From IMG/VR virus record IMGVR_UViG_3300027710_000009: 64,000 nucleotides of DNA, one strand, 5' to 3'. Position 1 is the first letter of the stretch. Every line of letters begins with the position of its first letter. Shown one piece after another: positions 11,948 to 62,228 of the stretch. The notes under the pieces were generated by a model that did no database searches, was not told the origin of the DNA, and saw only the letters and a program-made list of their open reading frames with translations. The position numbers were made by a program, and so were the translations under genes. Source of the DNA: a virus. Taxonomy: Duplodnaviria; Heunggongvirae; Uroviricota; Caudoviricetes.

Positions 11948-12871
11948 TTATGATCCCAGCCCAATGGCGAAGCCCACCACGGTAGCTGTTACGTATTCTC
12001 TTGTTGTTACACTTTTAACTGTTGGGATAGTATTTACTGTTAGGCTGCTATAGCTACCAATATTTGCACTAATGTTACCAGCAGTGATATTACCAGCAAG
12101 CGATGCAGTTCCTTGCACCACAAGATTAGCTCCGACACTTACATTGCCGGTAATGACTGCTTGTCTAGCTGTGACCTGTCCCCAGGTTAAAGTTATATTT
12201 GCCGCAGAAATATTACCAGTCACTGCTAGACTTGTGAGAGTTCCTAGCGAAGTAATATTTGGTTGTGCGGCAGTTTGTGATGTCCCAGTTACTTCAGAAA
12301 ATGTTCCAAAGGATGCTGTGACACTTCTTTTGTTTGTGTTTGATGCAAGTGCAGAAATGTTACCAATTGTGACGTTACCAGTCACGTCATAGGTTCCATC
12401 AGTTTCTAATGCACCAGTACTTACCGAACCTATTAGGTCAGTCACACCCTGAACAGTTAGTGTAGCGGCACTTAAACTTAATTCAATTGTGGCTTGTCTA
12501 GCAAACAGTGAACTCAGGTACGATGATCCACCTACACCCAAACCTCCAGAAATTACCACTGCACCTGATGTGTTACTGGTGCTGGGTGTGGATGCTTGAA
12601 ACTGAGTTGGATCACTAACTGTACCACCCGAGAACAATGTGCCTACTGTGGCTATTTGTACCCCATTAAGAAAGTATGTACCAGTCCAATAACTTGGAAC
12701 GCTGGCTCTTAAAGCAATATTGCCTGTGGCAGTGAGATTACCTGTGGTTAAATTTTGTCGTGCATCGTCAAGGAAAACAAAATTGTCGTTTACCTTGGAA
12801 AAAGCATCACGGATACTATCACCAGTTCCGTCGTTTGGTGTAGACCCTACATTAATTTCACTTATTGCCAT
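11948..12871 (-). CDS. Tail-fibre-like protein (307 aa) with conserved fibre N-terminal motif
   Basis: N-terminus PNDGTGDSIRDAFSKVNDNFVFL matches GDGDDLRTAFDKVNQNFANIY at the N-terminus of the 2277-aa protein. Thr/Ser/Gly/Asn-rich fibrous composition. CAATAAATATG lies upstream. Confidence 0.55.
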   Translation of the reverse strand: MAISEINVGSTPNDGTGDSIRDAFSKVNDNFVFLDDARQNLTTGNLTATGNIALRASVPSYWTGTYFLNGVQIATVGTLFSGGTVSDPTQFQASTPSTSNTSGAVVISGGLGVGGSSYLSSLFARQATIELSLSAATLTVQGVTDLIGSVSTGALETDGTYDVTGNVTIGNISALASNTNKRSVTASFGTFSEVTGTSQTAAQPNITSLGTLTSLAVTGNISAANITLTWGQVTARQAVITGNVSVGANLVVQGTASLAGNITAGNISANIGSYSSLTVNTIPTVKSVTTREYVTATVVGFAIGLGS

Positions 12872-19300: not shown

Positions 19301-20174
19301 TGTCAATTTCAACGTTGGCCGCTGACATTTGTGCAGTGGTCACAACACCACTGGTGATTATGGCATTGGCTGCGTTAATGTTTGCTCTAAGAGCATTGAT
19401 CTGGACAGCTTGAGAAACAGCATTGCTCCAGACACTACTGACGTTGGATAGTAGTACGCTGACATTGCTGGTCACTGCTCCAATTGCCAGAGCTTGAGTG
19501 GTAGCATTTGATGTTAAAGTAGTGATGCTACTTTGCACAGATACAATGCTGGAATTTGCCGCTTCAATATTGGCACGTAGGTTGCCAATTTCAACATTGG
19601 CTGCGGCCACACGTGCATTAGCACCCAACACAGCATTGCTGATTGGTGTTAGGTTAACAACAGTGTTCATACTACTGTTGTCAGAGAATCTCAGGGTGTT
19701 GACTGTGAGGGTTTGTCCAACCACAAGGTTTTCGGTGACCGAAGCGGGACCGTCTACAACCAATGCGCCATTCACAGTGGCTGTGTTGGTTACTGTGATG
19801 TTACCAGCAGTGATTTCGGCATTGCTAATGGTAGCATTGGCAATGGTGCCGCCGGTTACAGTTATATTGGGCAATGGGCCCAGACTGCTTATTGCGGCGT
19901 CAGTGTAGGCTCGATCAGCGGCAGAATTTGCTGCCATACTTGAACGCAGTTGGCTTACGTCAACATTGCTTGCTACACCAGTTACGTCAAACCATGCTAG
20001 CTGTACATTACCTTGTTTTCCAGCAACGGAATACACCAACGTGTTGGCTTGAACTGCTACATTTCCGCTGTAGATGTTAGCGAAGTTTTGGTTGACTTTG
20101 TCAAACGCCGTGCGAAGATCATCGCCATCCCCCGCACCAGCGCCACTACCAATATCTATTATCTGCTGAGACAT
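13341..20174 (-). CDS. Giant repetitive fibrous protein (2277 aa), probable long tail fibre or whisker
   Basis: 6.8-kb ORF with a conserved fibre N-terminal motif. There are about 14 copies of a module AQPNIT(S/T)VGTLxxLxVTGNVxxGNVSG, plus an N-proximal array of LRANIxAANAAI coiled-coil repeats. Extreme Ala/Asn/Thr/Val/Gly composition. CATAAATATC lies 20 nt upstream. Confidence 0.6.
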   Translation of the reverse strand: MSQQIIDIGSGAGAGDGDDLRTAFDKVNQNFANIYSGNVAVQANTLVYSVAGKQGNVQLAWFDVTGVASNVDVSQLRSSMAANSAADRAYTDAAISSLGPLPNITVTGGTIANATISNAEITAGNITVTNTATVNGALVVDGPASVTENLVVGQTLTVNTLRFSDNSSMNTVVNLTPISNAVLGANARVAAANVEIGNLRANIEAANSSIVSVQSSITTLTSNATTQALAIGAVTSNVSVLLSNVSSVWSNAVSQAVQINALRANINAANAIITSGVVTTAQMSAANVEIDNLRANVTAANAAIVSLRAQTDANAGAQHNSIAGIRANVTAANAAIVTANSALKAYTDSAISSLTTSTSGNAGVQALAINSLRANIAAANSAIAAANITVANIQISELRANIDAANAAIAAVTVAWTANAATQATQINTLTANAGAQTTSLNILTSNASAQGSAISSLQANIAAANAAIAAIAVPNLSGNVLVGNIQGYHGNFSVVSGTVQTAAQPNITTVGTLGNLVVSGNITAGRVTASVVDGTLTNGVQAGITGVGTLGSLTVTGNVTTGNVSGTTGTFTNIVGNLLTTAQPNITTVGTLGSLAVTGNIDSGNINTLNANIATNRLTANTVAGTLITPVQTNITRVGTLVNLAVTGNTTSGNVTASGTVQAAGLSGTVLTAEQPNITTVGNLTSLIVVGNLGVIGNIINSVNSAIVIGTVVSDFTLANTLVSSNISGTLFTAQQPNITSVGTLTSITTSGNLVASNVVANTQISAPTLVGNLTGPTATISGNILSGNVWVLGRIYADGNIDGNIVNATVGIKTEEVFANIGYFTDLNGTVKTNAQPFITAIGTLSALSVDGPVSITGSQFVAQDFYVTGNLFVNGNTTTVSAGNVTTSDKDLTLANGAVNSTAARGSGILIGQGGAYGNLTIYDGVWTTPNAFAIAGNVSTGNVSGSKGSFSIVGGTLETAAQPNITSVGTLTSVTTTGAVTAANITVAGATIQDINATNGNIQILRPEHVFASGNVIATVGEFTGLSGSLRTALQPNITQVGTLGTLSVTGNVGTGNVSGTTGSFTNIVGTVLTASQPNITTVGNLGNLNVTGTATVGGLVIQGGGAGSAFAVENITATANLTTSNLTVTGIANLVSFTGTVLNNAQPFITSVGTLTTLDVTGNVDAGNVNATTGHFANVTATTLVRGENVSANANVTATNGVFTDVYGTLQTASQTNITSVGTLISLGVTGNVTTGNVSGATGTFTNIRGAVLDASQTNITTIGTLSGLAVTGTTALANVTANGATFKDINATYANIGSEANIAGNVTAGNISASKGTFTQVQGTLQTNSQPFITEVGLLGNLDVAGTVLAPAVGNVSTLLRGYIVNNFQPNITELGALTSLSVINVVNTANITAAGAVLRDLNVTTANITLEANIGGNVTSANISAFKGTFTHIDGTLLTNAQPFITSIGTLPNLSVTSNIGVGNVNAVSTNTTGNSVSANTQVTGTAQIANLTVSGNTALVNNVNALSSLNVTNQLIVLGSNVNAFSANFQASSASITNTLSVDTLFVRSTAESIEAATGALQVAGGLGVVGNVSVDGLITSQGNLRSAKSLEVLDSAFIGNSIYLNDIGGGGGTGIYSNVANVSLFPSSVTNLDIGGEATLINVGAISGLGITRVRNNLLVDGSFFIATVGNIGSGNVTVNNDLRVLNNANVINSFTTNTLTATNSTSGSVTANVVTVADVVTVGNLSAAANATSLSTGALRVRGGISATGNIIVGFGNVGYNAGKEIVYINSNVAQITAANIQQLSGALQVRGGASIGGNLYVAGEATIIGNVNFTAFLAASINNTPIGNATPSSGAFTTLAIGAGNVRPPSRPAISFDFANSRKLDTILNFSRTGTATYYDARGFLVTAPSQTPRFTYDPSTLRSRGILIEESRTNLYRESNSFGNANVYTTLQASITTVAHATSSPDGNYNAFKLVEDSSTGLHAVYQQAPYVPTISAGTTYTASAFVKRGERDQVSLVFFAESNPAIFDLTNGTIDFQGPDYRSSMQTLANGWYRIQSTINKTNTSGNVAIASATGGSVYYTGNGTNGVYIYGFQVEEGGFATSYIPTTTIANTRSSESLTVSSIEFLRRYNQVENSVLVDATLDYNPSTLVDNNRRSTIVSFNDGTASNRIAILAETKSATAERTANLIIVKAGTVESNANITLGNLTTVVNNNRLASYFQSGTLATAANGTGTTTAVAGNVSSSINTMNIGSGPGTNFINGTIAKIQVWPALVTGSQLSTLTQ
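15600..18700 (-). repeat. Protein-level tandem module repeats inside the 2277-aa fibre gene
   Basis: Recurring (A/S)QPNIT-VGTL ... TGNV-TGNVSG-TG-FTNI modules in the translation. All plus-strand ORFs across this region are mirror-frame artefacts. Confidence 0.6.
18760..19640 (-). repeat. Nucleotide-level tandem repeats (~60-90 nt units) encoding LRANIxAANAAI coiled-coil repeats
   Basis: Repeated strings aatggc(t/c)gcattggc(c/t)gc...aatgttggcacgtag are visible at 18770, 18950, 19030, 19160 and 19270. Confidence 0.6.
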
Positions 20175-22858: not shown

Positions 22859-22887
22859 AGTATAACACAAAAAAGAAATATGGTCAA
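22859..22887 (-). promoter_or_regulatory. Sigma70 early promoter (TTGACC-N17-TATACT)
   Basis: Minus strand: TTGACCATATTTCTTTTTTGTGTTATACT. Confidence 0.5.
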
Positions 22888-26286: not shown

Positions 26287-26465
26287 TACGACCACTTGAG
26301 AGAAAATAACATGGCATCTTTTTTGTGCGTGAATTTGAAATGATACTGTGTGTTATGGAATAGACTTTCCAAACTAAGTTGCCAGTGTTTGTATCCAATA
26401 TTTTTCACTGCCCATGCGCCGGCTTGGGTGGCTTTATCTGCGTCTGTTAAGATTATGGTTGTCAT
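26286..26465 (-). CDS. LKW-tail family small protein (member 8, 59 aa; not in the ORF track)
   Basis: Own translation: MTTIILTDADKATQAGAWAVKNIGYKHWQLSLESLFHNTQYHFKFTHKKDAMLFSLKWS. TAATG coupling with member 7. Coordinates approximate. Confidence 0.45.
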   Translation of the reverse strand: MTTIILTDADKATQAGAWAVKNIGYKHWQLSLESLFHNTQYHFKFTHKKDAMLFSLKWS

Positions 26466-26471
26466 AGTACA

Positions 26472-26501
26472 ATTATAGCATACTATTACTTATTTTGTCA
26501 A
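26472..26501 (-). promoter_or_regulatory. Sigma70 early promoter (TTGACA-N18-TATAAT)
   Basis: Minus strand: TTGACAAAATAAGTAATAGTATGCTATAAT. Confidence 0.5.
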
Positions 26502-28391: not shown

Positions 28392-29213
28392 TTATATATC
28401 AAATCCCACAGTGGGGTCAAATGTATTTGCTTGCTGTTCGTATCCTCTGTAGCCACGTGGGTTACAGATCACACGACATTGTCCGATCATGTAGTCGCTG
28501 GGGTCATGCATGTGTCCATGTGTCCAGAACAGGATGTTTTCATGATCCAGTATGAACTCGCTCAGGTCCGATGCATAGCCACCATTCATGTCAGTATCAT
28601 GCTTGTAGTGCTCATGCACACTCAGGTAGCTGGGTGCATGATGTGTACAAACCACCACCTTCTTGTCACGATTCAGTTCCAGCATGGTCTTGAAATACTC
28701 CTTGGTACGCATGTGAGTTTCCATGGTATCCTGCGGAGTCAGCTTGCGGTAGATGGCGCCTGCTTTGTTGGTGATAGCACGATAGTCATTCATACCATGC
28801 TTGAGCACCTGTATGCACATGGGATTGCCGCGATTGCAGTCAGTCCACAGTGTGGCACCCAAGAACAACACACCATCAATTTCAATTGATTCATTTTCCA
28901 GCACTGACACATTGTCAGGCACAGTGGCCTTGAGCTCATGCACAGTTTTGTCATAGCGACCGTGATAGTGTTCATGGTTGCCCATGACATAGATAACTTC
29001 GCGGTACTTGGCACATTCTTCAATGAAGAAACGTTGAGCACGATCTTGGCGCTTGGGATCTCCTACTTCAGTCATGATGTTCATTGGGTCATACTTGTTC
29101 TTGAGCAAGGTGCGGCTTTCGCACACATCACCTGACAAGATCAGCACATCTCCGCCTGGCAACTCTAGGTCGCCAAACTCAAGATGAAGATCAGAAATTA
29201 CATTTATTCGCAT
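28392..29213 (-). CDS. Calcineurin-like metallophosphoesterase (Ser/Thr phosphatase family)
   Basis: Motifs DLHLE, GDV and GNHEH. A consensus sigma70 promoter ends only ~7 nt upstream of the ATG, which may make the transcript leaderless. Confidence 0.7.
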   Translation of the reverse strand: MRINVISDLHLEFGDLELPGGDVLILSGDVCESRTLLKNKYDPMNIMTEVGDPKRQDRAQRFFIEECAKYREVIYVMGNHEHYHGRYDKTVHELKATVPDNVSVLENESIEIDGVLFLGATLWTDCNRGNPMCIQVLKHGMNDYRAITNKAGAIYRKLTPQDTMETHMRTKEYFKTMLELNRDKKVVVCTHHAPSYLSVHEHYKHDTDMNGGYASDLSEFILDHENILFWTHGHMHDPSDYMIGQCRVICNPRGYRGYEQQANTFDPTVGFDI

Positions 29214-29219
29214 GTGACT

Positions 29220-29248
29220 ATTATAGTTGATAATGGTATTCTGGTCAA
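29220..29248 (-). promoter_or_regulatory. Sigma70 promoter (TTGACC-N17-TATAAT) ending about 7 nt before the phosphoesterase ATG
   Basis: Minus strand: TTGACCAGAATACCATTATCAACTATAATAGTCACATG. Confidence 0.45.
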
Positions 29249-29272
29249 GAAAAAAGGTGCCCTAAAGCACCT
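29249..29272 (-). terminator. Intrinsic terminator (AGGTGC-cctaaa-GCACCT plus T-run on the minus strand)
   Basis: Follows the stop of the gene at 29292-29588. Confidence 0.5.
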
Positions 29273-29291
29273 TTGATTAGTCCAAAATTAA

Positions 29292-36554: not shown

Positions 36555-36583
36555 AGTATAACAAAATGAGCCATTTAGGTCAA
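36555..36583 (-). promoter_or_regulatory. Sigma70 early promoter, cassette copy (TTGACC-N17-TATACT)
   Basis: Minus strand: TTGACCTAAATGGCTCATTTTGTTATACT. A terminator lies immediately upstream. Confidence 0.55.
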
Positions 36584-36594
36584 CCGTTTTTGGC

Positions 36595-36629
36595 CACAAA
36601 AAAACCCTTGATCAACAAGGGTTTTTTCT
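36595..36629. terminator. Bidirectional intrinsic terminator (AAAAAACCCTTG-atcaa-CAAGGGTTTTTT)
   Basis: Perfect 7-bp GC-rich stem flanked by an A-run and a T-run. Confidence 0.6.
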
Positions 36630-38908: not shown

Positions 38909-38986
38909 TTTGATTTCCTCTATAACAATGAATTAATGTGTATATTATACACGAACAAAAAAGCTCGTCAAGACTTTTTGGCACAA

Positions 38987-39544
38987 TTAAAATCGTACTG
39001 TGAAGCCTGTCATGACTCCGTCGTAATTAGCATCACCACGAACAGATTCATAGGCAAAGTTGATATCCAAGGTCTTGGACATGTGCAACACATAAACGGC
39101 ACGCCATCCACGTGTGTTGTCATTGTATTGGTCAGCATCAACTGCATTGCGATATCTCCAGCCTAATCTAGCAGTGCCAGGTCCAACGGCCATTCGCACA
39201 CCTGGTTCGGCACTGTAGTAGGCAAACTGATTGCCACCCACAGTTTTGATTCCTAGAGCAGTACGCACATAGGGTGTGATTACAGTGCCAGTGGGCAATA
39301 ACAAACTCGCACCACCTTCCAGTCGATTGATTGCAACTTTGGTAGCATCTGGAATCACAGTTTCAGCAATGGCATCAACAATAACGTTGTCCATGCGATG
39401 ACCCACAACAAACTGATATCCTGTGTCTGTTGCGCCAGTTGGACTTTTTCCAAACATGCTGTTGATGCCAGCAAAGGTCTGGGCTTGTGCAACTCCGGTG
39501 GTGATTGCTAGTAGTAGCAAAACATTTTTTAATTGATTAAACAT
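38987..39544 (-). CDS. Outer-membrane beta-barrel protein (OmpW/OmpA-like), paralogue 1
   Basis: Signal peptide MFNQLKNVLLLLAITTGVAQA, alternating amphipathic beta-strands, and a C-terminal aromatic ...GFTVRF. AGGAAAAC RBS. Confidence 0.6.
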   Translation of the reverse strand: MFNQLKNVLLLLAITTGVAQAQTFAGINSMFGKSPTGATDTGYQFVVGHRMDNVIVDAIAETVIPDATKVAINRLEGGASLLLPTGTVITPYVRTALGIKTVGGNQFAYYSAEPGVRMAVGPGTARLGWRYRNAVDADQYNDNTRGWRAVYVLHMSKTLDINFAYESVRGDANYDGVMTGFTVRF

Positions 39545-39600
39545 AAGTTTTCCTATAAGAACAGGGGCCAAGGCCCCTGTTGTGGTTGAATAGTTCTAGA

Positions 39601-40158
39601 TTAGAACTTGAAACCAACAGCGACGTTGGTAGCATTGTATGTGCTGTCACCGCGAACTTGATCGTAGCCTAGGCCAACAAAGTAGTTCTTGGTCAGTGCA
39701 TACTCAGCACCCAAACGGTATGTACGAGTGGTGTCTGCGTTTGCACTGTCTAGTGCGGCACGATAGCGATAGCCTGCTTTGACACTCAGTGCCGGAGTCA
39801 CCGCATACTTGATGCCTGGCTCCACTGAGTAGTAGGTATAGTTGGCCGAAGTCTTGAACTTCTCACCCACTGCACCACGACCATACACGCTGAACCCAGT
39901 GCCGCCAATTGGTTGCGTGGCTGTTAGGCCACCTTCCAGGCGTGTGTCGCTGAGATCGTTGTCAGTGTTGGTCTTTTGACGTAGACTGAAATCGGCCTTC
40001 AACAGTTGATTGATATCTGTGCCCATGGTTACCTTGGTGGCACGAGCATCTGCTGTACCATCAACGCCGTCACGACCACTGTATTCAACAGAGCCAAAAC
40101 CGCCTGCAAAGGCAGTGCTTGCGGCCAATAGTGCGGCCAATGCGATAAACTTCTTCAT
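39601..40158 (-). CDS. Outer-membrane beta-barrel protein, paralogue 2
   Basis: Signal peptide MKKFIALAALLAASTAFA and a C-terminal ...VGFKF. Same RBS type as paralogue 1. A GC-rich hairpin separates it from paralogue 1. Confidence 0.6.
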   Translation of the reverse strand: MKKFIALAALLAASTAFAGGFGSVEYSGRDGVDGTADARATKVTMGTDINQLLKADFSLRQKTNTDNDLSDTRLEGGLTATQPIGGTGFSVYGRGAVGEKFKTSANYTYYSVEPGIKYAVTPALSVKAGYRYRAALDSANADTTRTYRLGAEYALTKNYFVGLGYDQVRGDSTYNATNVAVGFKF

Positions 40159-40257
40159 TTGAAAATTTCCTTTTTGAAAATGTGCGCTGTTACGCAACAC
40201 ATGGATTATATATGCTGGTTACTACTGATGTCAAATAAAAAGGCACCAAAGCGACTG

Positions 40258-40977
40258 TCATGACCAGTATTTGCTGTTGTCCAAACTGTCCCAGTACTTC
40301 TTGTTGTTGCGGTTAACAAAGTTCTGGACCAAGTACTTGGCCATACCAAAATAGCCCATCTTCTTAAACCTACGGCTGTCTTGTCCAAAATAGTGATTGA
40401 GTATGCTAAACTTTTTTGGGCTGTAGCATCTAGATAGGAAGTAGTCTTCAGAAGTTGACATCTGCTCAGGAAAGCCGCCGTACTCTTCAAACCGGTCTCT
40501 GCGTGTGAGCATGAATGCGCCCACAGCAAATGGACTGAAATGTTTTAGAACGCGATTGATACCGTTGAACACAGCAAAGCCAATGCTGGCACGTTTGTCG
40601 TTGTCATAGCATTTGATGTTCAGCCCTAGTAGATCTAGGTTCTTAGATTCCAATTTGGCTACTGCATCACGAATCGTGTTGACATTGAAGAAGCGAACAT
40701 CAGCATCAATGAACAAGATGTAGGGTGTGGTAACCAAGGCAGCTCCGCGGTTCTTGGCCTGGCTGACTGGACCACCATCAATGATTTCAACATTCAATTT
40801 ACCCTTTAACTTTTGAATCACTTCTCGAGTGTTATCTGTAGAACAGTCTGCAATAATAATTCTAGTACTACCAATCAGTTGATTGCGTAGATGTAATAAC
40901 AAGTATCCAATGTAATTCTCCTCGTTCTTGCAAGGGATCACGATTGTAATTTTTTCACTTAGGATTGTTTCTTGCAT
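40258..40977 (-). CDS. Family-2 glycosyltransferase (GT-A fold)
   Basis: ITIVIPCKNEE in the N-terminal Rossmann region, followed by the FIDADV (DxD) motif. Confidence 0.7.
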   Translation of the reverse strand: MQETILSEKITIVIPCKNEENYIGYLLLHLRNQLIGSTRIIIADCSTDNTREVIQKLKGKLNVEIIDGGPVSQAKNRGAALVTTPYILFIDADVRFFNVNTIRDAVAKLESKNLDLLGLNIKCYDNDKRASIGFAVFNGINRVLKHFSPFAVGAFMLTRRDRFEEYGGFPEQMSTSEDYFLSRCYSPKKFSILNHYFGQDSRRFKKMGYFGMAKYLVQNFVNRNNKKYWDSLDNSKYWS

Positions 40978-42117: not shown

Positions 42118-42762
42118 TTATCTTTTCATTAGATCGTTTGTAAAGTCTAACAGTAGTTGATGATGATAGCCGTTATGATAGTGTGGTTTGAGATAGTTGT
42201 GCATGTCATACCACCACTGTTCGCTTTCAGGATGGCATCCCATTATTCCAATACGATCCTGATATATGGCCATCGGGTCACCGTTTGCGTAACGGGCAAC
42301 AGTGTCAAATTTGCTTTCATCGCCTGCCAGAGCACAGCCGTCATAGAAGTACATTTTCATATCTTCACCTTGCCAGTTTACAGGGCAGGCCTTGGCATGT
42401 GGGCGGCGTGTGTCTGTGTTGGGTTGTGTGATGTACTGCACAGCATCCACTCCGTCTAGGATATCAAAGTAATGGGACCCTGCCCAGTAGGCTCCCATGC
42501 AAATGCCCAGGTATCGGCCGCCATTGTTTACAAAGTTTTTGATTCGATGTTCGTGGTGCTTCATTAGAAAATGATAGCTTTCACTATCCCCGTCGCCTCC
42601 GGGAAAAGCCACAATGTCCACGCCATCAAAGAAATCTTTTTCCATGTTCTGCTTGGTGAAGATTTTGAATTTATAATACTCGGAAAGGGCCTCCATCATT
42701 GCATTTCCGCATTGCACAGACGCCCTGGGCTGGTACAAAAACATTGCGATGGTGGGTTTCAT
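42118..42762 (-). CDS. Class-I glutamine-amidotransferase-like (DJ-1/PfpI/BPL_N-like) protein
   Basis: [11 protein letters not shown] ... [15 protein letters not shown] resembles the nucleophile-elbow region of GATase1-like folds. Start refined to MKPTIAMF. Confidence 0.45.
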
Positions 42763-42770
42763 AACAGTAT

Positions 42771-43019
42771 TTACTCGTCCTTGGATTGTCGTTTTTTGAT
42801 CTTCATTCCTACAAAGGTTCCACAGAATGCTCCTATCATGGCAGGAATAAGCAGCCAATGATTTGTGGTATAACTGATAACTGCAACACTACCAAGTAGG
42901 TAACAGGCCACGCTCCAGAAACTGGCGCCCATCACATTATCTTTTGCAACACATCTTAGATAGTAGGTGTACACAACGTCAAGAAAAAATATAGAAAAAA
43001 ATGTTATTATGTAATTCAC
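42771..43019 (-). CDS. Hypothetical polytopic membrane protein
   Basis: Hydrophobic ORF with a GTG start. Confidence 0.35.
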   Translation of the reverse strand: MNYIITFFSIFFLDVVYTYYLRCVAKDNVMGASFWSVACYLLGSVAVISYTTNHWLLIPAMIGAFCGTFVGMKIKKRQSKDE

Positions 43020-43026
43020 AGAAGTA

Positions 43027-43052
43027 TTAGAAAAGAATGGGCCCGGAGGCCC
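43027..43052 (-). terminator. Intrinsic terminator of the tmRNA gene
   Basis: Minus-strand GGGCCUCCGGGCCC hairpin followed by AUUCUUUUCU. Confidence 0.6.
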
Positions 43053-43461
43053 ATGGTTGTTTATTTGACAGGGTAAGTCCTACCCCGCTGGTTTCGCTGT
43101 TTAGGCGAAAGCTGCCTCAGTGCGAGCAGACTTGGAACCGCCGAAACGGAAACCTTTGCCTACTGTTACTTTAACACCAGATTGTGTATTTGCTTTTGCA
43201 TTTACTTTTTTTGCGTCTACGGCCGAGTTCCCCCAACCCTACGGTTTCTGCCTTACCGTGCTGTCCACTTGCTTACTCTTTGCCCTGTCGAAACCATGAC
43301 TGGCCCATCATAAAAGGACTAGTGCAAACACTACCAGTACAACAACTACCCCTATCGCCAAACTACCCAGGTTGTCATTCATACCAATCTCCTTATGGTG
43401 GACCAGGCGGGAGTCGAACCCGCGTCCAGAACACTTTTCTATCCGCTTCATACAGCAATAA
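43027..43461 (-). ncRNA. ssrA: Circularly permuted (two-piece) tmRNA gene, organised as acceptor piece, then spacer, then coding piece
   Basis: The 3' end, ...UCUGGACGCGGGUUCGACUCCCGCCUGGUCCACCA at 43396, is nearly identical to the tmRNA 3' end GGACGCGGGUUCAACUCCCGCCAGCUCCACCA. An 89-nt spacer follows. Then GGGCCAGUCAUGGUUUCGACAGGG at 43306 matches the tmRNA 5' end GGGGCUGAUUCUGGAUUCGACGGG. The two form a 7-bp acceptor stem with a G3:U70 pair. Downstream, UAGAC-GCA introduces an open tag frame with no start codon, ending ...TEAAFA-UAA. The gene has its own promoter and terminator. Confidence 0.7.
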
Positions 43462-43466
43462 CTTAC

Positions 43467-43495
43467 AGTATATATTTATTCAGGGGAGTTGTCAA
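43467..43495 (-). promoter_or_regulatory. Sigma70 promoter of the tmRNA gene (TTGACA-N17-TATACT)
   Basis: Minus strand: TTGACAACTCCCCTGAATAAATATATACT. The predicted transcription start is about 65 nt upstream of the CCA end. Confidence 0.55.
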
Positions 43496-44312: not shown

Positions 44313-44427
44313 TCGGAATACTCCTGTTTAGTTTAGAGATATGATACACCGTGTACCATACCCATATTGTACTGCACTTTTGAAATGGTGTCAACCACTT
44401 CTTGGAGGCAGTTTGTCCAAATTCTTT

Positions 44428-44552: not shown

Positions 44553-45026
44553 TTAGGCCTCCACTGCTTCGGTTGCAAGTGCTTCGCTCAGGAGCACCAG
44601 ACGCTTGTAGAACGGGCTGTTCTCGTGCATGCTACCACAGTACCACTGACCGTTTTCCATCACATAGTAATACTCTGCGTCACAGCCTTCAGCACGTTCA
44701 AGGAACTGTTCAAAAGTGTGATCCACTTTGTACTCGACGCCAGTCTCGCCACGATCGCGTCCGTAAAAGGTACACATGTCTTCGGTGGCCAACTCAAACG
44801 CATCCTGCTCTTCGGCAGGCAATTCAAACTTGCTGAATGCATGCTTCTCGCCGATGTTGGCTCGCAGGCTTGACAAATCGCCAAGTGCTACCAGCTGATT
44901 GGCCTTTGAGCTGTCATAGTTTGCTTGCAACAGGCGTCCGTTGAATGACAGATAGCCATCCCAATGACAGTAGACTGATTTGCAAACTGTACCGTGCATG
45001 ACTGCAATGCGACTGCGTGTACCCAT
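44553..45026 (-). CDS. Hypothetical protein (157 aa)
   Basis: ORF. Confidence 0.4.
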   Translation of the reverse strand: MGTRSRIAVMHGTVCKSVYCHWDGYLSFNGRLLQANYDSSKANQLVALGDLSSLRANIGEKHAFSKFELPAEEQDAFELATEDMCTFYGRDRGETGVEYKVDHTFEQFLERAEGCDAEYYYVMENGQWYCGSMHENSPFYKRLVLLSEALATEAVEA

Positions 45027-45055: not shown

Positions 45056-45084
45056 AGTATAAACGAAATGGTCTTTTTGGTCAA
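45056..45084 (-). promoter_or_regulatory. Sigma70 early promoter, cassette copy
   Basis: Minus strand: TTGACCAAAAAGACCATTTCGTTTATACT. Confidence 0.5.
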
Positions 45085-45089
45085 CCGTT

Positions 45090-45350
45090 TTATGCGCTGA
45101 ACTCGTAGAATTTAACGCCAGGGTCAATGCTGATCAACTGCTTGGCGGCCTTGGTCAGCTGGCGGTATTTTGCTTGCACCTGTGAGCGTGGCAGTTCGCC
45201 ATCGCATGTCAAGTTCTCGGGGCTGAGGTCTGCGTCAATGCTGTCAGCCACTTCCTGACGACCCTTGGCAGTTTGCAGTTCAAACTGGCGACCCTTGAAA
45301 ATAGCGTTCCACTTGTTTTTCTGTTCCACGTAGGCTTTGAGTTCTTTCAT
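45090..45350 (-). CDS. Hypothetical protein (86 aa)
   Basis: ORF flanked by two copies of the promoter cassette. Confidence 0.35.
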   Translation of the reverse strand: MKELKAYVEQKNKWNAIFKGRQFELQTAKGRQEVADSIDADLSPENLTCDGELPRSQVQAKYRQLTKAAKQLISIDPGVKFYEFSA

Positions 45351-45380
45351 TGCTTGCTCCTTTTGTTTAACTTAGCCTAT

Positions 45381-45409
45381 AGTATAGCAAAATGGACCAT
45401 TTGGGTCAA
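45381..45409 (-). promoter_or_regulatory. Sigma70 early promoter, cassette copy
   Basis: Minus strand: TTGACCCAAATGGTCCATTTTGCTATACT. Confidence 0.55.
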
Positions 45410-45423
45410 CCGTTTTTTGCCAG

Positions 45424-45464
45424 AAAAAACCCCTGCAAAACTGTTGATTTTACAGGGGTTTTTT
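45424..45464. terminator. Bidirectional intrinsic terminator (CCCCTG-17 nt-CAGGGG with an A-run and a T-run)
   Basis: Minus strand: AAAAAACCCCUGUAAAAUCAACAGUUUUGCAGGGGUUUUUU. A promoter follows directly. Confidence 0.55.
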
Positions 45465-45496
45465 GTTGCTTTTTCGCAACAGTTGCTAAACTGCTA

Positions 45497-46573
45497 TTAA
45501 AAGGCGTAGTAGTTGAAGGGTTTTTCCTTGTCACGTACCAGCACCAGCTGATCGCCTTTGTGGTTAACAAACACAAACCGGCCTTCGGTTGGATCAACCT
45601 TCTTCAAGTCACGTTGCTTGAACTGCATGTCGTACCAGTCAGCCTCGTCGTTGTCTGGCTCAGGGTCGTAACCGTAGTGCCAGGTCTTCTCGGTCATTGG
45701 GTTGCCCTTCCACTGCACACTGCCTTCCAGCTGACGTTCAGTCAGCGGTTCAGTTGCACCCACAGGCACCACTGCAACCTTGTACAAGCTACCGTCGTCA
45801 AACTCAGGCTTGGCGTTCAGCATCTGCATGGCTTCCTGTGCAGACTCGTTGTAGCGATTCATTTCTTCAACCAAGGCCTTGAGCATGTCAAAGTTGAACT
45901 CAGCAAACAATGAACCCACTGTGCAAACACCATCGATGTTCTTCAGGCTGGCATCCTTGAGATTGTCGTAGCAGTACTCACGAATGAACTCTTGGTCCAA
46001 GCCCTTGAAGTCCAGCATGTAGAAGATACGACCCGGACGATTACGCATGTGTTGGTTCACACGCCATTTGTCGTTGCAGGTGATCAGGAACAGCTTCTTT
46101 GAAGGGAACACACCGTCCAACAGTGTAAGCATTTCTTCCTGCTCATCGCTGTCGTAGACCTTTTCAAACTCGTCGAACAACACCATGCAAGGTTGGCTGA
46201 TGTCTTGTAGCAGGCTGTTGAAAGCCTCACCACGCCAAGGTTGATTGATTAGTAAGGTAGGAATACCTGCTTCTGCACACTTGACAGCCAAGCTCTTGGC
46301 CAGCATGGTCTTGCCTGAACCCTTCTCACCTGTGAGCATGACGCCTGTGCTCACAGCACGATCCTCAAAGGTGTTGAAGATGCGGTCACGATGGCGTAGT
46401 GCATCACCGTAGACCTTGCCCTTGATTTCAAAGCTGTCCACAGTCTCCAAGAAGAAGTTGCCAAACTGATCCTGCTTAACAATGTAGTTGCCAGCAGGTA
46501 GGCTGTCTTTGATGTCCAAGCTGTCCTTGTCAGCAACCTTGTAGGTGTTGCCGCTTTTGATAAAATAGCTCAT
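45497..46573 (-). CDS. AAA+ ATPase
   Basis: Walker A GEKGSGKT, Walker B CMVLFDEFEK, and sensor region ITCND. Start refined to MSYFIK (46573). Confidence 0.7.
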   Translation of the reverse strand: MSYFIKSGNTYKVADKDSLDIKDSLPAGNYIVKQDQFGNFFLETVDSFEIKGKVYGDALRHRDRIFNTFEDRAVSTGVMLTGEKGSGKTMLAKSLAVKCAEAGIPTLLINQPWRGEAFNSLLQDISQPCMVLFDEFEKVYDSDEQEEMLTLLDGVFPSKKLFLITCNDKWRVNQHMRNRPGRIFYMLDFKGLDQEFIREYCYDNLKDASLKNIDGVCTVGSLFAEFNFDMLKALVEEMNRYNESAQEAMQMLNAKPEFDDGSLYKVAVVPVGATEPLTERQLEGSVQWKGNPMTEKTWHYGYDPEPDNDEADWYDMQFKQRDLKKVDPTEGRFVFVNHKGDQLVLVRDKEKPFNYYAF

Positions 46574-46582
46574 TTTGTACTT

Positions 46583-46607
46583 CCAAAAAGTGGGGGACTT
46601 GGCCCCC
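46583..46607 (-). terminator. Hairpin plus U-run between rIIB and the ATPase gene (terminator or attenuator)
   Basis: Minus strand: GGGGGCCAAGUCCCCC-ACUUUUUGG. Confidence 0.4.
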
Positions 46608-46615
46608 GGGTTCAA

Positions 46616-47461
46616 TTACTTGTTGTCAGTCTGTGCGGCCAATGCGGCCTTAACTGCGGCTTCTACTGCAACACGGATCAAGTCAGCAGTTGCGGTATCA
46701 GTTGCGGCTTCCACTTGCACAGGTGCAATAAAAGCTTCGTCTGGGTGTACACCCAATTCACCAATCACTTCGTAGCGGCAAGCACGACCCTTGGCGTTGT
46801 TGTAGTCAGTTGGGATGCTTACAACATCACGTGGGTTGATCTTAAGGATCACTGTGCGGCTATCGTGACCACCAAAGTGTGGCAAGTACTCTTTGGAGCA
46901 GAAGTGCAAGCCTGCGGAACAGGTACGATTTTGGTCGTCGTCCACTTCGTTGCGTTCCATTTCCACGATCTTGCCAGGACTGTTATCCATAGTACCCGAA
47001 TGGCAGTCCAAGAAGTCCTTGCGAACTTTCTTGTAAGCCAAGAAGTAACCGTCTGGAGTCAAAGGCAAGTTGCCCTTTTCCAAGAAGCCGTACAGTTCTG
47101 TCACAGCTCGCTTGGATGGGTTTTGCATCAAGTTCTCCATGAACAAGATCAGTGGCTCCACTGGAAAACCATCTTGATACATTTCAATCAAGCGGCTTGT
47201 GAGCACACCAGCCATTTCACGTTCTTTGTAGAACACTTTGCTACCTTGGATGGCCACATGGCCTGCACCGTATGCCAGGATCTCCTTGGCAGGGTCAACC
47301 ACCTGCTTCACAGTATCCCAGTCATTGTCCTTGATAGCTTGTTTCAGCTTCTCATATCCAATGTGGGTGGATGTTACGGTATGGGGTTGGTTGTCAATGA
47401 TAACAACAATGTTCTTGCCCTGAATCAGATATGGAAATGCCATTTTAAGCCTCTTTGTCAA
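46616..47461 (-). CDS. rIIB: rIIB-like protein
   Basis: 281 aa, immediately downstream of the rIIA-like gene (16-nt overlap). The blocks FMENLMQNPSKRAV, DGYFLAYKKVRKDF, DCHSGTMDNSPGKIVEM, TCSAGLHFCSKEYL and INPRDVVSIPTDYNNAKGRACRYEV recall T4 rIIB. Confidence 0.7.
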   Translation of the reverse strand: MTKRLKMAFPYLIQGKNIVVIIDNQPHTVTSTHIGYEKLKQAIKDNDWDTVKQVVDPAKEILAYGAGHVAIQGSKVFYKEREMAGVLTSRLIEMYQDGFPVEPLILFMENLMQNPSKRAVTELYGFLEKGNLPLTPDGYFLAYKKVRKDFLDCHSGTMDNSPGKIVEMERNEVDDDQNRTCSAGLHFCSKEYLPHFGGHDSRTVILKINPRDVVSIPTDYNNAKGRACRYEVIGELGVHPDEAFIAPVQVEAATDTATADLIRVAVEAAVKAALAAQTDNK

Positions 47462-49625
47462 TCAAGTTAATGTACTGTGCCACTGCCACCGCATTGATGT
47501 CATAGTCACGCAAACTGCTCAGGAGTGGATAGCGATTACGGATGGCAGTCAATTCATCTGTAAGGCTCTGGACAACCGTGTCTACGTCAACTGGTGTTGC
47601 ATAGTCACGGCACAATTTTTCTAAACTGTACTTGTCAACTTTTGCATCGTCAGCGCCTTTGAACTGAGTCAAAAACTTTGAGTATGCACTGTTGGGCGAT
47701 ACCAGTTTGGTAATATCGTTATTGTAGCGGAAATACTTGTTTGCGTCAATCTGTTTCAGCGCACATTGTCGCACAATTTTTGGATCCAATTTTGCCAAAA
47801 CTTCACGGATATGATCCTGCACATTGATCCAGTTCTTTTGGGTTTCAATGAACTTGATGTCCGATTTACGAACACCCAAGATAGCAATACCATGCAAACC
47901 TGGGATGCCTGATTCAGTAACCATGTCACTGAAGTGACGCATGTTTTGTGTGATAGGCGCACCATTTGATATCACAGTAAAGCCACTGAGTGGCAGGTAG
48001 TAGTAGGTTTCGCTGGCATCAAATTGATCAGCTTTGCCTGCATCCTTCCACACCAGCTCACGTTCTTTGTGATAACCACCGTAGCCACGTTGAGCCAAGC
48101 GCAGGATACTTACATTAGAACCCATACCAGCGCCGCCAGTCTTGCGGTCTTTGAGCATGAGCTCACTGGCTACCATGCATTGGGCCGCAGGAGGATTGCG
48201 CAGGTCTGCAAAGAAGCCAATGGTGTCCATGGTCTTGCCTTTCACAGCAGGACTCAAAACGTACACATTACTGGTATGGCTCTTGCTTGGCAATGCCACA
48301 CCCTTGGCTTCGGCATTGCGCCAGTGATACTTGGCACGGCTTAACGCACCAATTTTGGTATCGTTGGTAACAATGATAGTGCTAGGGTCAATGCTGAATT
48401 CCCACTCTTGCTCGTAACTGCTATGACTCTTGTCGTACACACGCATGGGCTTGAGTTCAGAACAGGTAGCACCACCACGACTCTTTTGGAAAGCCAACAC
48501 TTCAATGTTGTACTTGGCGGCCAAGTCTTTGACATCAAATTTGAACGGCACACCACGCATGTAATGAGTGTTGGTAGTGTCAATCAAATCAAAGTTGGTA
48601 TCCTGTGCATACTTTATGGCCGCACTCTTGAACAAGGTTTCGTTGGCCTTCTTCATCAAGAAGTAGGTCTTGTCCCAGTCGTTGGTGATAAGATCTGCTT
48701 CCAGTGCCACGTGAACAGCCAGCTGGGCATTGAGTGCTTCTAGCTTGTTGCGGATAGCGTTGATGGTCTGTGGAATGTAGCTCAAGCCTTCGCGGCTGGC
48801 TTGGAAGTCCAGTTCGCCAATGTCAAAGTGCATTTCCAAGCCACAGTTCAAGATCTTGTAGAGATCGCCTAGTGCAGATTCTGCATTAGGCACATCAATT
48901 GGATAGGCAATATTGCCCATCACAGCACGGCTGGAACGACTGTCAGTGTAATGCACACCTGGAATGATGTTCTTTTCTTTGTACTCAACGTCACGGAACT
49001 TGAAGTCGCCCTCACCGCCTGATACCACAGGGCGCAGGGCAAAGTAGGTGTACACATGACGAGCTTCGTCTTCAAACTTGTAGAAGTCGCTACGGCTGTC
49101 TACTGCAAACTTGACTTCAACACCTGCAGGTTGGTCAGTAGGCTCTGAGTGCATGAGCACGATGCTGGGCACACCTTCACCATTGATGAACGCACTGTAC
49201 ACACCGCGGGTGCCATCTTTGATAGCAGTCACAGTGAAATTGTCTGTGTAGGAGAAGGGGCTCTTGGAACCCAAGCCCAGGGCACCAATGAACGCATTGG
49301 ATTCAGTCTTGGTTGACTCAAAGTAAGTGGTGTAGATGCTTTGCACTTGTTCGTGAGTAAGGCCAGTGCCGTAGTCACGAATTGAAAAAGTAGGGTCAAT
49401 CACATTGGGCAAGTGTACGTCAAAAGGCACATGACTACGGCCAGCGGCTGTATGTGAGTCTACTGCATTGCAAGAGAGTTCACGCACAATAGCACGGATC
49501 TTGTTTGCGTACAAGCCAGAGGAAAGAATGTTGAAGGCCTTGGCAGAATTGCGAATACGGAACTCGCCAATTTCGCCTACGTTTGACAGAACAGCTTCGT
49601 GGGCTGGTGCATTGTTGATGATCAA
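47445..49625 (-). CDS. rIIA: rIIA-like protein with N-terminal GHKL (HATPase_c) ATPase domain
   Basis: 726 aa, the same size as T4 rIIA. N-box RELSCNAVDS, G1 IRDYGTGLT, G2 GALGLGSKS. Adjacent to rIIB. Confidence 0.7.
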   Translation of the reverse strand: MIINNAPAHEAVLSNVGEIGEFRIRNSAKAFNILSSGLYANKIRAIVRELSCNAVDSHTAAGRSHVPFDVHLPNVIDPTFSIRDYGTGLTHEQVQSIYTTYFESTKTESNAFIGALGLGSKSPFSYTDNFTVTAIKDGTRGVYSAFINGEGVPSIVLMHSEPTDQPAGVEVKFAVDSRSDFYKFEDEARHVYTYFALRPVVSGGEGDFKFRDVEYKEKNIIPGVHYTDSRSSRAVMGNIAYPIDVPNAESALGDLYKILNCGLEMHFDIGELDFQASREGLSYIPQTINAIRNKLEALNAQLAVHVALEADLITNDWDKTYFLMKKANETLFKSAAIKYAQDTNFDLIDTTNTHYMRGVPFKFDVKDLAAKYNIEVLAFQKSRGGATCSELKPMRVYDKSHSSYEQEWEFSIDPSTIIVTNDTKIGALSRAKYHWRNAEAKGVALPSKSHTSNVYVLSPAVKGKTMDTIGFFADLRNPPAAQCMVASELMLKDRKTGGAGMGSNVSILRLAQRGYGGYHKERELVWKDAGKADQFDASETYYYLPLSGFTVISNGAPITQNMRHFSDMVTESGIPGLHGIAILGVRKSDIKFIETQKNWINVQDHIREVLAKLDPKIVRQCALKQIDANKYFRYNNDITKLVSPNSAYSKFLTQFKGADDAKVDKYSLEKLCRDYATPVDVDTVVQSLTDELTAIRNRYPLLSSLRDYDINAVAVAQYINLIDKEA

Positions 49626-49655
49626 TTCAAACTCCTTTTTACTTAATATGCCACT

Positions 49656-49684
49656 AGTATAGCAAAATGGGCCATTTGGGTCAA
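49656..49684 (-). promoter_or_regulatory. Sigma70 early promoter, cassette copy (upstream of rIIA)
   Basis: Minus strand: TTGACCCAAATGGCCCATTTTGCTATACT. Nearly identical to the copy at 45381. Confidence 0.55.
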
Positions 49685-49706
49685 CCGTTTATTTGTTGTA
49701 AAAATG

Positions 49707-49952
49707 CTACAAATATCCACGGTCAAAGTTGGCATGCACAGCATACCACTGGAAAAATATGGGTTCATATTCTGCCCAATTGCACACTGCCCATTCTTCT
49801 TCACGCTCGGCCTGCCAGGGTTTGAGAGCGTTGCTCAGCAGGGCCACCACGAGCTTCTTGTTGTGCCGTGTGGCCTGGCCCTTGGCAGAACTTTCCTTGT
49901 CGTACATGCCAATCAGTTGACCTGACCCTTTTTTATAAACTACAAATCGCAT
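49707..49952 (-). CDS. Hypothetical protein
   Basis: ORF. Confidence 0.3.
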   Translation of the reverse strand: MRFVVYKKGSGQLIGMYDKESSAKGQATRHNKKLVVALLSNALKPWQAEREEEWAVCNWAEYEPIFFQWYAVHANFDRGYL

Positions 49953-51976: not shown

Positions 51977-52005
51977 AGTATAGCAAAACGGGTAGAAATG
52001 GTCAA
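51977..52005 (-). promoter_or_regulatory. Sigma70 early promoter, cassette copy
   Basis: Minus strand: TTGACCATTTCTACCCGTTTTGCTATACT. Confidence 0.55.
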
Positions 52006-52030
52006 CCGTTTTTTGTTGCAAAAAAGCCAC

Positions 52031-52058
52031 AAAAAAACCCCTGTAAAAACAAGGGTTT
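52031..52058 (-). terminator. Intrinsic terminator (AAACCC...GGGTTT hairpin with a T-run on the minus strand)
   Basis: Minus strand: AAACCCUUGUUUUUACAGGGGUUUUUUUGUGGCUUUUUU. Confidence 0.45.
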
Positions 52059-58155: not shown

Positions 58156-58185
58156 ATTATACACGAAATGGAAGTTAATTGTCAA
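58156..58185 (-). promoter_or_regulatory. Sigma70 early promoter (TTGACA-N18-TATAAT)
   Basis: Minus strand: TTGACAATTAACTTCCATTTCGTGTATAAT. Lies upstream of the lipoprotein cluster. Confidence 0.5.
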
Positions 58186-59628: not shown

Positions 59629-59657
59629 ATTATGCAGGAAATGGATTTTGTTGTCAA
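59629..59657 (-). promoter_or_regulatory. Sigma70 early promoter (TTGACA-N17-CATAAT)
   Basis: Minus strand: TTGACAACAAAATCCATTTCCTGCATAAT. Confidence 0.45.
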
Positions 59658-59860: not shown

Positions 59861-59889
59861 AGTGTAGCAGGCCCTGTGTTTATTGTCAA
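59861..59889 (-). promoter_or_regulatory. Sigma70 early promoter (TTGACA-N17-TACACT)
   Basis: Minus strand: TTGACAATAAACACAGGGCCTGCTACACT. Lies directly after the terminator at 59893-59924. Confidence 0.45.
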
Positions 59890-59892
59890 CCA

Positions 59893-59924
59893 TAAAAAAA
59901 GCCCTAGTATACTAGGGCTTTTGG
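59893..59924. terminator. Bidirectional intrinsic terminator (GCCCTAGTA-TACTAGGGC palindrome with an A-run and a T-run)
   Basis: Perfect 9-bp palindrome. Confidence 0.55.
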
Positions 59925-62198: not shown

Positions 62199-62228
62199 AG
62201 TATACGCGAAATGCTAGATTGTTGTCAA
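62199..62228 (-). promoter_or_regulatory. Sigma70 early promoter (TTGACA-N18-TATACT), upstream of uvdE
   Basis: Minus strand: TTGACAACAATCTAGCATTTCGCGTATACT. Confidence 0.5.

Follow-up and report, generated by a model that had tools for sequence, protein, structure and literature searches.

Terminator-promoter cassettes with PeSL-like architecture in the early region of an uncultured T4-like phage, and signs of segment exchange among them

Introduction

Over a stretch of 64,000 nucleotides (the window) of the viral DNA IMGVR_UViG_3300027710_000009, a promoter element, in some copies joined to a hairpin terminator, recurs in the early region, and the unit located at 45056-45464 on the minus strand holds, in order, a hairpin terminator, a promoter, a leader, an 86-aa orphan gene and a second promoter. 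This arrangement raises the question of whether such copies are only strong promoters, or whether they also exchange sequence with each other and serve as points at which genes are inserted, deleted or relocated. Considering the evidence given below, it is quite probable that the elements are sigma-70-type early promoters, optionally fused to a terminator, which exchange segments and sometimes serve as crossover points, hence combining the architecture and the behaviour of the promoter early stem-loop elements (PeSLs) to which the first-pass annotation had likened them.

In T4-type genomes, PeSLs were described as composite elements that are conserved within the hyperplastic regions and consist of a strong sigma-70-like promoter and a stem-loop capable of stopping or attenuating transcription from upstream, with an A/T-rich region upstream, a Shine-Dalgarno sequence and a start codon at the 3' end, and an association with indels of orphan genes; they recombine into mini-circles, with crossovers lying between the -10 box and the Shine-Dalgarno sequence or start codon, or near the stem-loop (PMC2839356; PMC4122927). 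The first report concerned RB49/phi1 (Arbiol et al. 2010, PMC2839356), T4/PST and KVP40/nt-1 were added later (Comeau et al. 2014, PMC4122927), and for the cyanophage S-PM2 PeSLs were judged an unlikely explanation of gene gain (PMC4503421).

The source phage is a member of an uncultured, abundant T4-like clade. Nearly all window genes lie on the minus strand, PHROG matches were obtained for rIIA (8.7e-127), rIIB (5.8e-82) and an AAA ATPase (4.8e-94), a DNA ligase gene being located downstream of that block, and a 1032-aa virion protein shares 30-44% identity with T4-like cyanomyovirus proteins. A search for near-identity at the DNA level (6 kb against 50,697 phage records) gave no match, and relatives were retrieved via proteins, which brought up over 200 related contigs in collections of viral and metagenome sequences (L-numbers below). 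A ligase-anchored scan missed the closest genomes, and it was an exact-protein look-up that yielded L246, a 97% relative. Identity to the window amounts to 97.7% over 10.4 kb for L246, 91% for L235, 93% for the ATPase of L167/L168 and 93-94% for L163/L164/L001/L002. Judging by the kinds of collections holding these relatives, the habitat is probably freshwater.

The element and its copies

All terminators and promoters named in this text lie on the minus strand unless stated otherwise. Within the unit at 45056-45464, the terminator follows the ATPase gene and has the form A6-CCCCTG...CAGGGG-T6 (45424-45464, RNA folding). It is the upstream half of the composite element T+P45381, whose promoter P45381 (45381-45419) comprises an A-tract with CGG, the -35 box TTGACC (45404-45409), the 17-nt spacer CAAATGGTCCATTTTGC, in which the palindrome CAAATGG-T-CCATTT(T)G is contained, a TGC and the -10 box TATACT (45381-45386). 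It is followed by a 30-nt 5' leader (45351-45380, minus strand; ataggctaagttaaacaaaaggagcaagca) with the Shine-Dalgarno sequence AAAGGAG, and by the 86-aa orphan gene g45350 (45090-45350, minus strand; called in L161), which stands alone between P45381 and P45056, the starts of these two promoters being 325 nt apart. P45056 (TTGACC-AAAAAGACCATTTCGTT-TATACT, 45056-45084, pattern scan) is predicted to drive g45026 (44553-45026, minus strand), a 157-aa product by gene call with a PHROG match to phrog_1987, to which no function is assigned.

Upstream of this unit, P49656 (TTGACC-CAAATGGCCCATTTTGC-TATACT, 49656-49684, consensus match) precedes rIIA, and the block made up of rIIA (47445-49625), rIIB (46616-47443) and the AAA ATPase gene (45497-46573), identified by PHROG and gene calls, occupies 45497-49625 on the minus strand between P49656 and T+P45381. 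Two more copies combine both halves: T+P51977, with its promoter (51977-52030) consisting of an UP-like linker gtggcttttttgcaacaaaaaacgg and TTGACC-N17-TATACT, and with a terminator at 52031-52058 that was found by folding, its coordinates being read from the sequence as the pattern search had no match for this hairpin; and T+P36555, with its terminator at 36598-36627 (RNA folding) and its promoter (TTGACC-TAAATGGCTCATTTTGT-TATACT, 36555-36597) located before g36527 and the DNA ligase gene. The annotated bracketing of rIIA, the ATPase gene and orphan genes is thereby borne out, as the rIIA-rIIB-ATPase block and single orphan genes do lie between elements.

The exact consensus that had been proposed for the element matched 45380-45416 with 0 mismatches and 49655-49691 with 1 mismatch, and was found in none of 100 shuffles; looser matching added 36554 and 51976. 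An independent repeat search (families D9, D12 and D16) returned a 73-nt family with four copies of 73-81% identity, and smaller repeat families tie in 22858, 45037 and 59610. Scanning the window for TTGAC-N17/18-TAnAnT recovered all ten positions that had been put forward (36555, 45056, 45381, 49656, 51977, 22859, 58156, 59629, 59861 and 62199), each of which is a minus-strand site of sigma-70 promoter type, TTGAC(C/A)-N17/18-TATA(C/A)T. About ten further sites were obtained with the same pattern, listed as 21779, 26472, 29220, 38944, 40205, 43467, 44366, 47721 and 56814, so that 20 window sites on the minus strand stand against 1 on the plus strand.

Promoters and terminators

Several lines of evidence concern the promoter nature of these sites. 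When TTGAC-N18-TAnAnT was counted in 161 related sequences (2.34 Mb), 688 sites were found on the coding strand as compared to 27 on the other strand, and the 13 best consensus matches within 36-55 kb all fall on the coding strand. Almost every window site precedes a gene start or the 5' end of a transfer-messenger RNA (tmRNA), mostly at a distance of about 10-40 nt, 62199 and the intragenic 47721 being the exceptions that lie farther off. The structural-gene part of the window (1-20 kb) has no coding-strand promoter of this pattern, and the genes preceded by the elements (rIIA, rIIB, ATPase, ligase) belong to the early class of a T4-like phage. The best copies possess a T6...A6-CGG linker upstream of the -35 box, a TGn before the -10 box and AAAGGAG 5-8 nt before ATG or TTG; the T-tract/A-tract linker resembles an UP element. 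From these sequence properties we infer that the sites are early promoters of sigma-70 type served by the host RNA polymerase, at which transcription would start and, where a hairpin is present, stop.

The canonical T4 late-promoter motif TATAAATA has 0 occurrences in the 64-kb window (about 1.5 expected by chance), the large structural genes included; thus no contrast between early and late regions was obtained, and the late promoters of this lineage must differ from those of T4.

Fold energies confirmed that three of the copies lie directly behind strong hairpin terminators, which had been annotated as bidirectional. The hairpin at 45424-45464 has -25.9 kcal/mol (z -6.5), with 0 of 200 shuffles equally stable, and those at 52031-52058 and 36598-36627 have -16.7 kcal/mol (z -4.4) and -17.3 kcal/mol (z -4.9), respectively. 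Two further pairs came to light at 59861 and 29220, so that five hairpins with a U-run precede promoters (45381, 51977, 36555, 59861, 29220), covering -11.7 to -25.9 kcal/mol and z -2.9 to -6.5. The remaining window promoters, about 15, have no hairpin, and hence only a subset of the sites represents full PeSLs. Many terminator-promoter copies are accompanied by a small conserved motif, GT(T/G)GC-T6-(G/A)CAAC, in which a 5-bp inverted repeat encloses a T-run and which usually lies between the terminator and the A-tract/-35 box. It was seen at 52006-52030, 45465-45482 and 49685-49710 (minus strand) and also in L003, L167 and L235, and could correspond to the distal half of an UP element or else to an additional small hairpin.

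Similarity among copies and exchange of their parts

The copies had been described as near-identical. This holds for 45381 and 49656, which share 28 of the 29 positions from the -35 to the -10 box, and in part for 36555 (25-26/29). It does not hold for the other pairs (18-21/29) or for the longer comparison, in which the five best copies over 71 nt are 51-79% identical pairwise with exact runs of 12-23 nt; in an alignment, the copies that had been called diverged have little in common beyond the two sigma-70 hexamers.

How such similarity is to be read depends on what promoter function itself demands. One explanation holds that the elements are strong promoters and nothing else, their extended similarity being functional constraint, breakpoints at them being kept by selection and a special role in recombination being absent. 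It draws on T4, whose early promoters were reported to follow an 'uber UP/-35/TGn/-10' design with additional consensus regions extending well past the hexamers (PMC2988021), so that part of the excess conservation has an ordinary functional reading, and on the observation that the conserved parts of the window copies coincide with the UP-like, -35, TGn/-10 and Shine-Dalgarno positions. Against this stands the clade-wide consensus, which reaches at most 0.44 bit per position outside the hexamers; the 17-nt spacer and the 25-nt leader are hence under no general constraint, and function does not need near-identity specific to one lineage. Owing to this weak consensus, 73-81% identity over 73 nt points to shared ancestry or exchange and not to generic promoter constraint. 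The earlier statement that the identity exceeds what a promoter requires therefore stands for spacer and leader, which are barely constrained across the clade, and is weaker for the UP-like tract, the TGn and the strong Shine-Dalgarno sequence, which may account for a part of it.

The composition of individual copies is more telling. The core of P45381 is that of P49656 (28/29), its leader has a 23-nt exact match to the leader of P51977, and the three downstream genes are unrelated; by its sequence, P45381 thus appears to be chimeric, joining the core of P49656 to the leader of P51977. Two types of core (CAAATGG.. and AAAATAGCCCG..) and two of leader (aggctaagttaaac.., leader A, and gtggcatattaagt.., leader B) were seen in every one of the four possible pairings among the window, L247, L002 and L167: the CAAATGG core is joined to leader A at 45381 of the window and to leader B at 49656 of the window and 1159 of L247, and the AAAATAGCCCG core is joined to leader A at 5431 of L247 and 35 of L002 and to leader B at 6328 of L167. 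Such a four-gamete pattern requires recombination between the -10 box and the leader.

Orthologous positions were found to be occupied by differing elements as well. The slot separating the ATPase gene from g45350 holds one terminator-promoter variant in the window and L246 and, with orthologous flanking genes, the variant known from 51977 of the window in L247, L250, L251 and L167; this 51977-type variant sits in the same slot after the ATPase gene in L235 too, though its g45350 has moved before rIIA. Likewise, the -10 box of the rIIA promoter reads TACAAT in L001/L163, L002, L003, L006 and L167 and CATAAT in L235, with spacers differing from those of the window, L246 and L247, in which the promoter possesses the TATACT core common to other window copies and retains the rIIA-type leader. 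All core-by-leader combinations together with a differing element at an orthologous position indicate that copies at different loci have exchanged segments, which is what the explanation by promoter function alone does not provide for; the copies thus appear to recombine with one another.

Gene-content changes ending at the elements

Whether the elements also bound gene turnover was addressed by comparing gene content across relatives. A clear case is that of L167/L168, in which two TTGACC boxes stand in place of the single P45056 of the window and enclose exactly a 331-bp cassette. The cassette comprises spacer, -10 box, leader and an orphan gene of 84 aa, which was found nowhere else, and both flanks are collinear with the window up to the hexamer. 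An indel exactly between two -35 boxes speaks against elements that are promoters only.

Larger rearrangements end at elements too. In L235 the unit of terminator, promoter, g45350 and promoter sits before rIIA and not after the ATPase gene, and in L163/L164/L001/L002 the rIIA-rIIB-ATPase block is located between T+P36555 and the ligase gene, meaning that two multi-gene blocks have swapped their order at elements. Homology of the window with L167 and L163 ends at 36557, the -10 box edge of P36555. P38944 (TTGACG-N16-TATAAT, 38944-38971) marks with its -10 box the right edge of a block replaced in L246, a genome which also carries a 1.4-kb gene for an AMP-binding enzyme directly upstream of the T+P51977 terminator. 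In L247, P38944 and P40205 (TTGACA-N18-TATAAT, 40205-40234) are homology islands flanking a differing cassette with an outer membrane protein (OMP)-like gene, P40205 lying between a replaced glycosyltransferase gene and the diverged OMP-like gene. A separate promoter accompanies nearly every homologue of g45350, and within the clade this family is found in at least 3 locations with respect to rIIA and the ATPase gene. Comparison of the cassette genes with PHROG gave almost no matches, and none for g45350; they are orphan genes.

Since all relatives are metagenomic contigs and repeats can mislead assemblers, these arrangements might be assembly chimeras formed at the repeated element. Several findings make this extremely unlikely. 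The copies share at most 23 nt of exact identity, which is below typical assembly k-mers, and identical arrangements came out of separate assemblies of different samples (L163=L164, also in L001; L167=L168; L003=L005, also in L179 and L182). In addition, the window region 35090-55350 is reproduced at 100% identity in a 115-kb ENA metagenome contig, at 99.975% in a JGI contig and at 100% in a Logan contig. Samples in which the phage is present are ENA ERZ27245771, JGI 3300009419 and 3300050184, and Logan SRR5818248.

The locus at P38944 and P40205 (13100-16520 in L246, 9538-11256 in L247) deserves separate mention. A GT2-type glycosyltransferase (239 aa; 40258-40977, minus strand) is replaced by one of GT4 type (332 aa) in L246 and L247, and the adjacent paralogues resembling OMP beta-barrels (185 + 185 aa; 38987-40158, minus strand) are 80% diverged in L246 and reduced to a single gene in L247. 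The locus thus seems to evolve fast and to be connected with the host surface. Another change concerns a BPL_N-domain gene just downstream of the tmRNA (42118-42762, minus strand), which is inverted in L167/L168 (L167 14434-15061) and L247 (7765-8339) and is among the very few opposite-strand genes of the region.

Gene turnover away from the elements

A number of results weigh against the elements having a special part in gene shuffling. Among the five closer relatives, 24 of 32 promoter junctions (75%) are broken as compared to 33 of 53 other junctions (62%), which corresponds to an odds ratio of 1.8 and a Fisher p = 0.25 in a test that is noisy, as tblastn misses short proteins. Across the clade, gene adjacency is conserved at 0.14 of promoter junctions and 0.12 of others (p = 0.79); over such distances no part of the region has escaped scrambling. 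At least two differences in L246 have no promoter at the edge concerned, these being an indel of an 86-aa open reading frame (ORF) within a densely packed operon and the glycosyltransferase replacement at its left end, which falls slightly within a coding region. The longest exact matches between copies (12-23 nt) are short for efficient homologous recombination, and at the L167 crossover only the 6-nt TTGACC is shared today. Spacer identity is 0.63 within and 0.59 between genomes (permutation p = 0.07), and identical spacer variants also occur in different genomes at different loci, which suggests a shared pool of variants shuffled among loci and phages and not strict concerted evolution. Finally, selection for intact transcription units would likewise leave surviving breakpoints at promoters and terminators.

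Taken at the level of the clade, gene turnover is just as frequent at junctions without elements, which limits what may be claimed: of the cassette-bounded turnover that had been proposed, individual breakpoints inside elements were found, and a significant concentration at promoter junctions was not. The latter, together with several indels at promoterless junctions, again agrees with elements that act as promoters only; with the exchanged cores and leaders and the L167 indel set against it, that explanation is considered rather improbable. A further suggestion, namely that the elements generated the paralogue arrays, has to be dropped: the early region contains just two tandem pairs (g40158/g39544 and g26465/g26295), neither is separated by an element, and nothing thus ties the elements to paralogue arrays. 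A special role of the elements in gene shuffling is plausible, and they may cause rearrangements and not simply tolerate them.

The mechanism suggested here starts from the composite cassette of about 75-115 nt formed by the best copies. An optional intrinsic terminator, which would end the upstream unit, is followed by the T-tract/A-tract UP-like linker, CGG-TTGACC, a 17-nt spacer ending in CCATTTTG, and TGn with TATACT; the 3' part consists of a leader of about 25 nt, the strong AAAGGAG ribosome-binding site and the start codon. Every cassette would thereby insulate and drive one early unit, the size of which varies between one 86-aa orphan gene and the whole rIIA-rIIB-ATPase block. As direct repeats with 12-23-nt exact stretches scattered in a recombination-proficient genome, the copies would swap segments via ectopic recombination or gene conversion, leaving some nearly identical and others mosaic, and would sometimes become crossover points for insertion, deletion or relocation of the bracketed unit.

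The spacer palindrome

Three window copies carry the spacer palindrome, which invites the idea of an operator located in the conserved spacer. Among the spacers at 818 unique clade sites, 7.1% contain inverted repeats whose arms measure at least 5 bp; the share is 17.5% in the TTGACC class and 3.8% after shuffling, the counts being inflated by the relatedness of the sequences. The palindrome is, however, missing at 51977 and 45056, and at orthologous promoters it is missing or has other arms or spacing (GTTTTGGCCCATTTTGC in L003; A-run/T-run arms in L006); no candidate regulator was identified. Given that the palindrome is not conserved at orthologous promoters, the operator reading receives low weight and is regarded as very unlikely.

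A more far-reaching idea takes the core CGG-TTGACC, palindromic spacer and CCATTTTGC-TATACT as the recognition site of a phage-encoded DNA-binding protein that would direct cassette exchange or early shut-off. This is a long shot; if true, the units would be an integron-like, site-directed gene-cassette system in T4-like phages and not a passive substrate of general recombination.

Comparison with known systems

With hairpin, A/T-rich UP-like tract, -35 box, TGn/-10 box, short leader, Shine-Dalgarno sequence and start codon, the window elements match the published PeSL layout, and the sigma-70-like boxes are N17 apart. At the sequence level the terminator-promoter copies show everything by which PeSLs were defined: promoter, stem-loop, A/T tract and Shine-Dalgarno sequence, a multi-copy family and chimeric copies. 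As with PeSLs, many copies flank orphan genes in the early hyperplastic region; in individual cases, indels, replacements and displacements have an end within or next to a copy, crossovers being placed either at the -35 box or in the stretch from the -10 box to the Shine-Dalgarno sequence. Differences are that the uncultured, probably freshwater lineage has its own consensus, CGG-TTGACC ... CCATTTTGC-TATACT, that only about 5 of about 20 promoters possess an upstream hairpin, that the stems, CCC(C/T)TG..CA(A/G)GGG with A/T runs, are those of classical terminators, and that the window elements are known from their sequence, the breakpoint enrichment among the relatives compared not being significant. 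The elements hence belong to a known kind, the PeSL cassettes, and extend it to a lineage that is new and uncultured. PeSLs documented so far come only from cultured phage pairs infecting enterobacteria (Escherichia, Yersinia) and vibrios, and the present case points to the promoter-terminator linker as something generally involved when the early regions of T4-like phages are assembled and rearranged.

The early promoters of T4 (Hinton 2010, PMC2988021) share with the window promoters the host sigma-70 holoenzyme (predicted for the window), near-consensus hexamers, TGn, UP-like A/T tracts and extra conserved positions, as well as the location before early genes including rIIA; they differ in the -35 box, which is TTGACC or TTGACA in the window and of GTTTAC type in T4. 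Lambdoid morons are likewise autonomous single-gene transcription units inserted between other genes, but they lack conserved shared flanks, whereas here the flanks are a repeated family exchanging segments and the units are co-oriented with their neighbours. Integron cassettes (attC/attI) are comparable in being small, mostly single-gene and bounded by imperfect repeated sites, and a circular intermediate was proposed for PeSLs; in contrast to integrons, neither an integrase nor another site-specific recombinase was found here, the repeats consist of promoters, so that every cassette brings its own, and exchange is presumed to be homology-driven.

Further promoters and neighbouring features

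The diverged copies comprise two terminator-promoter pairs, at 59861-59922 (hairpin 59894-59922; TTGACA-N17-TACACT, 59861-59889) and at 29220-29274 (hairpin 29250-29274; TTGACC-N17-TATAAT, 29220-29248), and four promoters, namely CGG-TTGACC-N17-TATACT at 22859-22887 (repeat family D12), TTGACA-N18-TATAAT at 58156-58185 with CCATTTCG contained in its spacer, ACGG-TTGACA-N17-CATAAT at 59629-59657 (repeat family D16) and TTGACA-N18-TATACT at 62199-62228. For the promoters at 29213-29248 and 26465-26501, only 6 nt separate the -10 box TATAAT from the ATG of g29213 and g26465, respectively, which suggests that the mRNAs of these genes are leaderless or nearly so.

A consensus-like promoter, TTGACG-N17-TACAAT (47721-47749), is contained in the 3' part of rIIA and precedes rIIB by about 280 nt. 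It is almost invariant in L001, L002, L163, L235, L246 and L247; in L003, L004 and L167 it has substitutions but can still be recognised. Its position recalls PrIIB1/PrIIB2 of T4, also located within rIIA, which are middle promoters there.

A two-piece (permuted) tmRNA was identified at 43010-43488 (minus strand), with a predicted tag ending in ...ARTEAAFA (ARAGORN; Rfam RF04321, 97.3 bits). Its 5' end carries the promoter TTGACA-N17-TATACT (43467-43495), conserved in L006, L167, L246 and L247; two-piece tmRNAs behind early promoters are already known from aquatic T4-like phages, e.g., Melnitz (PMC9004378).

Downstream of the promoter at 44366-44394, the leader (44313-44365, minus strand) contains a conserved inverted repeat, ggtatggtacacggtgtatcata, followed by ctaaactaaacaggag. 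The repeat is nearly unchanged in L003, L167, L246 and L247 and looser in L006 and L235, despite differing promoter spacers, and may form an RNA hairpin regulating g44312.

In the structural part of the window, a 2277-aa ORF (13341-20174, minus strand) has no Pfam match and contains many diverged internal repeats, which fall into 81-, 53-, 69- and 160-nt families with up to 11 copies; repeat units are shared with the neighbouring 307-aa ORF (11948-12871). The 2277-aa product is probably a fibre-like or surface structural protein.

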